Source of the DNA: an uncultured Bacilli bacterium
GTDB lineage: Bacteria; Bacillota_I; Bacilli_A; RF39; UBA660
Direction: 5' to 3'
DNA: 56,508 bases
Assembly (NCBI GenBank): GCA_934130235.1
Contig: CAKOXU010000002.1
Location: 1 to 56,508, forward strand
Shown: piece after piece, positions 43,246 through 43,866 of the stretch
Position numbering within the stretch: position 1 is the first letter of the stretch
Layout: each line of letters opens with the position of its first letter
Notes under the pieces: model-generated
Told to the model about the DNA's origin: nothing
Database searches by the model: none
Seen by the model: only the letters and a program-made list of their open reading frames with translations
Program-made: the position numbers and the translations under genes

Positions 43246-43866
43246 CTATTCACTAACCTTAACCATTGCTGGTCTTATAACTTTATCTTTATAAATATAT
43301 CCTTTTTGTAATACTTCAAGAACCATACCAGATTCAACGCCCTCTTTTTTCTCCATCATAATAGCATTATGATAAACTGGATCAAATGGTTTATTAGAAC
43401 CGTCTATAGCTTTAACCTCAAAATTCTCCATGACATTTTGCATATTACAATATATCATTTTAAATCCTTCTAAGAACTTAGAGACTTCATCTTCTAAATT
43501 ATCGTCATCAAGTTTAATAGCTCTCTCAAAATTATCCAATATTGGAAGCATTTGTTTAATTAAATCTTCATTACAGAATTTAAGCATTCTAGTAATTTCA
43601 TCATCTTTTCTTTTACGATAATTAACAAGATCAGCTTTTGCTACTAGAAAATCTTCTTCTAATTTCTTATTTGCAAGCTTTAACTCATCTATTTCTTTTT
43701 TATATTTATTCCTATCTTTTTTCTTATTTTCTTTATTACAAGAAGAATCCCCTTCACATTCACATTTTCCATTGCAAGTACATTCCTTGTTTTCTTGACA
43801 TCCACAAGTACAAGTAGGATCACACTTACAATTACTATCTTTGCACTCACATTTTTCTAAAGACAT
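43246..43866 (-). CDS. grpE: Nucleotide-exchange factor GrpE with Cys-rich N-terminal extension
   Basis: 206 aa. GrpE core ([13 protein letters not shown], ...[20 protein letters not shown]). Strong Shine-Dalgarno AGGAGG 6 nt before the ATG. The first 43 residues contain 12 Cys. Confidence 0.9.

Follow-up and report, generated by a model that had tools for sequence, protein, structure and literature searches.

The grpE gene of an uncultured Bacilli bacterium (GTDB lineage RF39; UBA660) lies on a 56,508 nt stretch of DNA (NCBI assembly GCA_934130235.1, contig CAKOXU010000002.1, positions 1 to 56,508; this whole stretch is called the window below), and the encoded protein begins with a 43-residue tail that contains 12 cysteines. 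Translation of the tail starts at the annotated ATG, and purifying selection acts on it as strongly as on the GrpE core. It probably represents a heat-shock-induced module for binding metals such as Cu(I), Zn or Cd as thiolates, and replaces the usual GrpE tail. The source organism is a member of the Bacilli with a small genome, about 1–1.3 Mb; its relatives were binned from the gut metagenomes of humans, rabbits, goat, sheep, roe deer and chicken. No paper describing a cysteine-rich GrpE tail was found in literature searches, nor one linking such a tail to metal stress.

Anatomy and translation of the GrpE tail

The initial annotation had described a tail of CxC units followed by a normal GrpE core and preceded by a strong AGGAGG ribosome-binding site. 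This anatomy was confirmed. The gene was identified from the list of open reading frames (ORFs), its translation, and matches to both the Pfam and NCBIfam GrpE families: the Pfam domain (PF01025) covers residues 44–206 (E = 8.7e-47, 159.3 bits against a cut-off of 25.8), and the NCBIfam GrpE equivalog (NF010738) scores 143.6 bits, above its cut-off of 137. The protein has no match to the HSP33 domain (PF01430). The features of the gene and its product are as follows:

43246–43866, minus strand: grpE, 206 amino acids (aa) plus stop codon
43872–43877, minus strand: ribosome-binding site (AGGAGG) 5 nt ahead of the ATG of grpE; it overlaps the TAG stop codon of hrcA (43876–43878)
43738–43866, minus strand: N-terminal tail by translation, residues 1–43, with 12 Cys
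43738–43851, minus strand: cysteine module, residues 6–43, mostly CxC pairs with 3–5 residues between pairs
43774–43830, minus strand: single copy of a 19-residue unit, CxCx3CxCGCxE(G/N)KxCxC, residues 13–31, with one G-to-N change
43699–43737, minus strand: Lys-rich linker, residues 44–56, the start of the long helix
43246–43698, minus strand: conserved GrpE core, residues 57–206, predicted to comprise the long helix, helical bundle and C-terminal beta domain

The tail cysteines are at positions 6, 8, 13, 15, 19, 21, 23, 29, 31, 35, 37 and 43. An alignment of 66 sequences shows that linker residues K49, K52, K54 and K56 are almost invariant, and that many columns of the core are invariant from L74 onwards. 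The AlphaFold2 (AF2) monomer built on a 66-sequence alignment is poor overall, with a mean predicted local distance difference test score (pLDDT) of 57. It has helices at residues 44–117 and 121–147 and a C-terminal domain with pLDDT below 50, while residues 1–43 are modeled as coil (block-mean pLDDT 35–50), the helix beginning at residue 44. Purine-rich sites are found at the same place before grpE in most relatives.

The cysteine content of the tail is far outside the range expected for this organism (26% G+C), where Cys accounts for 1.09% of a proxy proteome of long ORFs. The probability of at least 12 Cys in 43 residues is 3e-14, with about 7e-9 occurrences expected genome-wide, and a six-frame scan revealed GrpE to be the most Cys-dense real ORF of the assembly.

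It had been argued in the initial annotation that the extension must be translated since no in-frame Met precedes the conserved core. The argument itself is weak, because bacteria can also initiate at GTG or TTG, but the conclusion holds on other evidence. After codon 1, no ATG, GTG or TTG comes in frame until codon 94, a position already within the conserved core. When compared with the closest distinct relative (L111, 87% identical), the tail shows a synonymous divergence (dS) of 1.49, a nonsynonymous divergence (dN) of 0.127 and a dN/dS ratio of 0.086, which is practically the value of the core (0.085). Across four sequences, eleven aligned Cys columns are kept while the codons TGT and TGC alternate. 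The tail is thus translated and selected, with conserved cysteines but a freely varying length and freely varying spacer residues.

The genome is a metagenome bin, 75% complete, and in such material an apparent extension might stem from a mis-assembly, from a frameshift, or from an untranslated leader followed by the true start codon. Comparison with other assemblies spoke clearly against this: a separate assembly from the Hadza gut (L113) shows no difference over the tail DNA and just 3 in the gene, all at its 3' end, and the exact 206-aa protein is recorded on 10 contigs. The reading frame also stays open in about 200 relatives (including the 120 best homologues), where all length differences are in frame. 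Together with the lack of a start codon before codon 94 and the strong ribosome-binding site at the annotated ATG, these results make an artefact extremely improbable.

Spread, composition and the 19-residue unit

Cysteine-rich GrpE N-termini, for which the initial annotation had proposed an ortholog search, proved to be widespread in the genus and to extend to part of the family. They occur in all of the 120 best homologues (4–22 Cys; 64–100% identity) and in all 24 genus relatives that have a GrpE match, one further genus genome being without such a match. At least four tail Cys were counted in 179 of 201 unique sampled GrpE sequences, a sample that was partly seeded with tail peptides, so that Cys-rich tails are over-represented in it. 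A family survey that was not so seeded, and which used one genome per genus, gave about 31 of 84 genera with a Cys-rich tail; this figure merges two parses and a few hand-corrected rows and is therefore approximate. The tails are concentrated among closer relatives (17 of the 26 genera at a core identity of at least 60%), and the remaining genera have short GrpE tails rich in Lys and Glu. Six other families of the class have no Cys-rich GrpE tail. In a tree of 89 GrpE cores, 67 of which have at least four tail Cys, at least eight changes of state are required, four of them forced by well-supported branches.

Some genera carry His-rich GrpE tails at the same position. Examples are:

L157: GrpE tail with 22 His and 0 Cys
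L150: GrpE tail with 18 His and 5 Cys
L146: GrpE tail with 12 His and 8 Cys
Ca. Pelethosoma: GrpE tail with 21 His and 5 Cys

Because these related genera have His-rich tails at the same place, the selected property appears to be metal binding rather than thiol chemistry alone.

The 179 Cys-rich tails have an unusual but consistent composition: 31.7% Cys, 19% Glu, 9.7% Asp, 8.5% Asn, 8% Lys and 4.3% His, with only 0.25% aromatic residues and 1.35% Ile, Leu, Val and Met together. Their Cys-Cys spacings are mainly CxC (48.5%), Cx3C (21%) and Cx5C (9%). The 38-residue module in the window has 12 Cys, lacks Phe, Trp, Tyr and His and conforms to this pattern, and by its sequence the composition of the tail fits the operational definition of a metallothionein.

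The core of the 19-residue unit (C.CGC.....C.C) was found in 50 of the 179 Cys-rich GrpE tails. Over 27 aa, the window tail is 70% identical to a stand-alone protein (P0128), and a profile made from stand-alone proteins of this kind (profile A2) matches positions 43720–43842 of the window (E = 5.4e-4). No further (CxC)n genes were found in the genome of the window (G000). Two other Cys-rich frames were seen in the same assembly: contig C16 encodes a 54-aa DUF1540 protein with 11 Cys at about 13.2 kb (minus strand), and contig C26 has, at about 4.5 kb (plus strand), an open frame of 154 aa that includes 22 Cys, matches no Pfam family and, we presume, may be spore-coat-like.

Low-complexity sequence can also arise as a functionless expansion in a repeat-prone, fast-evolving region that is merely tolerated, and would here just happen to be rich in Cys. 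The wide variation across relatives (4–30 Cys, 28–104 aa), the obvious tandem repeats from which the tails of L082 and some other relatives are built, and the lack of a Cys-rich tail in about two of every three genera in the family are all compatible with this. However, dN/dS is 0.09 at saturated synonymous change, the Cys columns are kept through synonymous codon swaps, and aromatic and aliphatic residues are strictly avoided across the 179 tails. There are no DNA tandem repeats in the window's tail, which is therefore not a recent repeat expansion, and the 19-residue unit is also kept as independent genes (see below). A tolerated expansion is considered very unlikely.

Free-standing copies of the unit and their CsoR-family neighbors

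A phmmer search with the tail alone against 1.84 billion representative sequences returned two matches, one of which (P0122) was judged spurious. The other (P0121) is real: it is free-standing, 80 aa long and contains the 19-residue unit twice. A tail-only word search gave no candidates. Eight more proteins (P0123–P0130) of 44–82 aa consist of little besides the unit, and their genes have their own stop codons and neighbors unrelated to grpE. A scan of metagenome contigs added 80 loci with the unit, of which about 70 are free genes for 43–83 aa proteins and three are GrpE fusions, and in a few the unit is fused to a DeoC-like enzyme, a ferredoxin-like protein or an HD-domain protein, or forms a variant with a signal peptide. 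Taken together, these sequences point to an uncatalogued and widespread bacterial metallothionein unit. It was found in only four of 401 genomes of the class, the search being insensitive for such short motifs.

A link to metal sensing is suggested by neighboring genes. The gene for P0128 (62 aa) starts 12 nt after a CsoR-family gene, the product of which has Cys30, His55 and Cys59, i.e., the x-C-H-C pattern of Cu(I)-sensing CsoR and not the C-x-C pattern of the persulfide type; in NCBIfam it comes closest to the copper repressor RicR, below cut-off. A second pair, with csoR followed by a gene for a small protein, is present in a genome of the window's own family. Other class relatives have copA after csoR, which is the usual order. 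In 11 of the 80 metagenome loci the immediate neighbor, no more than about 110 nt away, is a CsoR-family gene, and three architectures occur among them. As CsoR is present at roughly one per genome, this adjacency is, by a rough estimate, about a hundred-fold above chance. The copper-type residue pattern was seen in all three of the CsoR sequences read. A search for the csoR-metallothionein pair among 40 relatives of G091 did not detect it.

Several observations were made on these loci and their surroundings. At L133, a csoR located at 1663–1946 (minus strand), upstream of a free 50-aa Cys-rich gene, consists of two overlapping ORFs; the split looks like a frameshift around 1810, due either to faulty assembly or to a repressor that is truly broken and would leave the small gene always on. 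The CsoR of a class relative (L120, 1489–1803, minus strand) has a small Cys cluster of its own, as its sequence starts with MEKKCCCNTMES. Fusions of the unit are found at L241, L246, L286, L290, L258, L262, L264, L276, L278 and L288, and the fusion types are the DeoC-like enzyme, a 296-aa protein, the ferredoxin-like protein and the HD-domain protein. Further types are the variant with a signal peptide or lipoprotein-like leader and a 200–224 aa multi-repeat protein of GC-richer organisms, and both of these have a CsoR-like gene adjacent. The free 82-aa unit protein at L128 (376–624) matches its record only if TGA is read as Trp, and so the unit also occurs in a Mycoplasma-like lineage that uses genetic code 4. 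Near free Cys-rich genes (L291, L260 and similar metagenome loci), glutathione peroxidase-like genes occur at four loci and HtpG at three; the commonest neighbor (nine loci) is a membrane protein with an XRE-type helix-turn-helix domain.

The main rival to metal binding is a thiol or redox switch, or a scavenger, that needs no metal: the cysteines would be reduced in this anaerobe and form disulfides on exposure to oxygen, peroxide or electrophiles, which would either soak up the oxidant or change the action of GrpE on DnaK. Redox sensing has a precedent among GrpE-like factors (PMC12987570), and glutathione peroxidase-like genes lie near the free unit in 4 of the 80 loci. A search of 75 clade genomes for the redox chaperone Hsp33 (PF01430) also found it in none of them (absent from 25 of 25 in the genus and 50 of 50 in the wider GrpE clade), although 14 of 16 other genera of the class have it. 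Its absence was rejected as evidence for compensation by the tail, since the 13 clade members with Cys-free tails also lack Hsp33 and the absence reflects a single phylogenetic event that does not covary with the tail. Tails rich in His, or with His only, occupy the same position in related genera and indicate metal ligation, and free homologues lie beside CsoR-family metal-sensor genes, the closely inspected one being of the copper type (C-H-C) rather than the persulfide type (C-x-C). In addition, a few cysteines suffice for a switch, compared with the 4 to 30, in freely varying number, that are found here. A purely redox role is therefore disfavored and is regarded as unlikely.

Loss of metal export was also considered as the reason for the tail. 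A role as a replacement for efflux found no support, as there is no inverse relation between the tail and metal ATPases with an HMA domain, which were found in 30 of 37 genomes with the Cys tail and in 7 of 13 without it. In the G000 assembly the only HMA-domain match found is:

G000 contig C24, 5279–7691, minus strand: Cd/Zn-type P1B ATPase (TIGR01512, above cut-off), preceded by a CadC/ArsR-like repressor with the motif EMCVCDI

Heat-shock control, proposed role and comparison with known systems

The genes and control sites surrounding grpE are as follows:

43876–44922, minus strand: hrcA, heat-shock repressor (Pfam HrcA, E = 5.7e-49), with a GTG start as listed
44916–44989: control region with two CIRCE-like inverted repeats (44916–44942 and 44963–44989), one on either side of the promoter
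44975 to 44947, minus strand: sigma-70-type promoter TTGACA-17-TATACT, matching 11 of 12 positions, with an extended TG; the best promoter match of the region
41415–43253, minus strand: dnaK (Pfam HSP70, E = 9.5e-249), with a GTG start as listed that overlaps the end of grpE
39573–41360, minus strand: pepF-like M3 oligoendopeptidase gene (Pfam Peptidase_M3, E = 2.1e-72), between dnaK and dnaJ
38434–39561, minus strand: dnaJ (Pfam DnaJ, DnaJ_CXXCXGXG and DnaJ_C), with the CXXCXGXG zinc-finger domain intact

Two CIRCE matches were found where 0.01 would be expected by chance, and because these repeats flank the best promoter match, the gene order hrcA-grpE-dnaK-pepF-dnaJ is, as judged from its sequence, a classical heat-shock operon under HrcA/CIRCE control. 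Two of the listed start codons appear to be misplaced. The GTG of hrcA (44922) falls within a CIRCE-like operator just downstream of the promoter, and the homologues in L111 and L113 are called at 328 aa; the true start is probably about 60 nt further downstream. Likewise, the true start of dnaK is likely to be an ATG near 43232, where the conserved N-terminal residues begin.

Within this setting, the protein would be an ordinary GrpE nucleotide-exchange factor with its usual disordered N-terminal tail swapped for a metallothionein-like module. The 12 thiolates would fold around soft metal ions to form clusters and, by analogy with metallothionein domains, could hold roughly four Zn/Cd or six to eight Cu(I) per chain, with two modules presumably present in each GrpE dimer. 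As misfolding would de-repress the HrcA operon, such a metal sink would be made when thiophilic metals damage proteins, and it would be tethered beside the substrate-binding domain of DnaK, where GrpE tails normally act.

A number of points weigh against this interpretation. The AF2 model shows no fold for the tail, but this would be expected of a metallothionein without metal and is uninformative. Searches at E ≤ 10 gave no Pfam family for any of four tails and, in the PDB, neither a metallothionein nor a related chain. Only chance matches were obtained, and those to the LED repeat, a sperm microtubule protein and factor XII were rejected as such. The resemblance among short Cys-rich repeats could also be partly convergent. 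The genome of the window already has a Zn/Cd exporter of the CadC/CadA type. The link to copper comes from the free-standing relatives and not from GrpE, the gene of which is under HrcA and not CsoR; copper-type residues were inspected in three CsoR sequences only, and CsoR was found neither in the genome of the window nor in 23 of the 25 genus genomes. Lastly, about two thirds of the genera in the family have either lost the tail or failed to gain it, and so it is dispensable. The metallothionein likeness claimed by the initial annotation therefore stands as regards composition (Cys content and CxC pairs) and has gained comparative support from the His-rich variants and from free units beside CsoR-family genes, but it is not backed by any curated family. 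On balance, a metal-thiolate module remains the probable explanation.

The tail may do more than store metal. It could act as the metal- or redox-sensing appendage proposed in the initial annotation, and metal loading might also alter nucleotide exchange or the release of substrate. In E. coli, the disordered GrpE tails bind the substrate site of DnaK via a hydrophobic IIM motif and promote the release of clients (PMC12915176). This motif has no counterpart in the window tail, so the function would have been either given up or made dependent on the state of the metal cluster; the latter is speculation, and we would not expect it to be the case. Two versions can be envisaged in which the tail takes an active part in the Hsp70 cycle instead of being only a passive sink. 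As a gate, the module would fold or unfold on loading of metal, or on loss of metal through oxidation, and would thereby set the client release promoted by GrpE, such that DnaK would keep its clients longer under metal or oxidative stress. As a stripper, it would remove Cu(I), Cd or Zn from mis-metallated clients as they are released. An active part of either type is rated as doubtful.

If a gate or stripper did prove correct, a portable 19-residue metallothionein unit would have been grafted onto the core proteostasis machinery of many gut and rumen anaerobes. GrpE is among the best-studied co-chaperones, and the action of its N-terminal tail on the DnaK substrate site has been shown only recently. 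A lineage of abundant, uncultured gut bacteria in which this tail is swapped for a cluster of metal ligands would provide a natural experiment on tail function, and suggests that soft-metal or thiol stress can feed directly into the Hsp70 system. The unit also bears on the handling of copper and zinc in animal guts, where levels of both metals are high.

Several known systems can be compared with the GrpE of the window. Canonical GrpE (PF01025), as in E. coli, Geobacillus kaustophilus and M. tuberculosis, has a core of long helix, bundle and beta domain that is also predicted for the window protein, the same operon partners (hrcA, dnaK and dnaJ) and the same CIRCE control. Its tail is disordered, has no Cys clusters and contains a hydrophobic motif for DnaK binding (IIM in E. 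coli; PMC12915176), whereas the module of the window protein has 12 Cys among its 38 residues and hardly any hydrophobic ones.

Cysteines of chaperone systems serve as stress inputs in Hsp33 and in vertebrate GrpEL2 (PMC12987570). Cys87 of GrpEL2 is a proposed redox sensor, and is the sole Cys-based input for GrpE-like factors given in a 2025 review of GrpE, which does not mention metal, zinc or metallothionein (PMC12987570). Hsp33 has a single four-Cys zinc center on a folded domain, and GrpEL2 a single Cys, in contrast to the long cluster of variable number in the window tail.

Metallothioneins, including those of animals and plants, cyanobacterial SmtA and Pseudomonas PmtA, share with the window tail a Cys content of about 30%, CxC pairs, a near-zero content of aromatic residues and the lack of predicted structure when metal-free. 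They differ in that the window module is an appendage on a 163-residue core, matches no Pfam family and has acidic spacers (19% Glu and 9.7% Asp across the tails). It contains the unit of the uncatalogued CxCx3CxCGCxEGKxCxC family (P0121, P0123–P0130 and the 80 loci), without the adjacent CsoR gene that is itself a minority trait of that family.

For the free unit, the closest regulatory analogue is MymT, the Cu(I) metallothionein of Mycobacterium tuberculosis under the CsoR-like RicR. MymT is a small, Cys-rich bacterial protein controlled by a CsoR-family copper sensor (PMC3944814), and the free unit is likewise small, rich in Cys and encoded beside CsoR-family genes. Unlike MymT, to which no sequence relationship was detected, the unit is a repeated motif of 19 residues, and its copy in the window is fused to GrpE under the control of HrcA/CIRCE instead of a copper sensor.

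The closest functional analogue is HspA of Helicobacter pylori, a GroES with a C-terminal, nickel-binding extension rich in His and Cys, which has been described as a nickel-scavenging chaperone (PMC8779794, PMC3856676). It is a GroES and not a GrpE, its extension is at the other terminus and is mainly His-rich, whereas the window tail is of the pure Cys/CxC type, and its metal binding has been shown by experiment, whereas that of the window tail is predicted. Both are heat-shock co-chaperones with a terminal, low-complexity appendage rich in metal ligands, and among the relatives of the window GrpE there are even His-rich forms.

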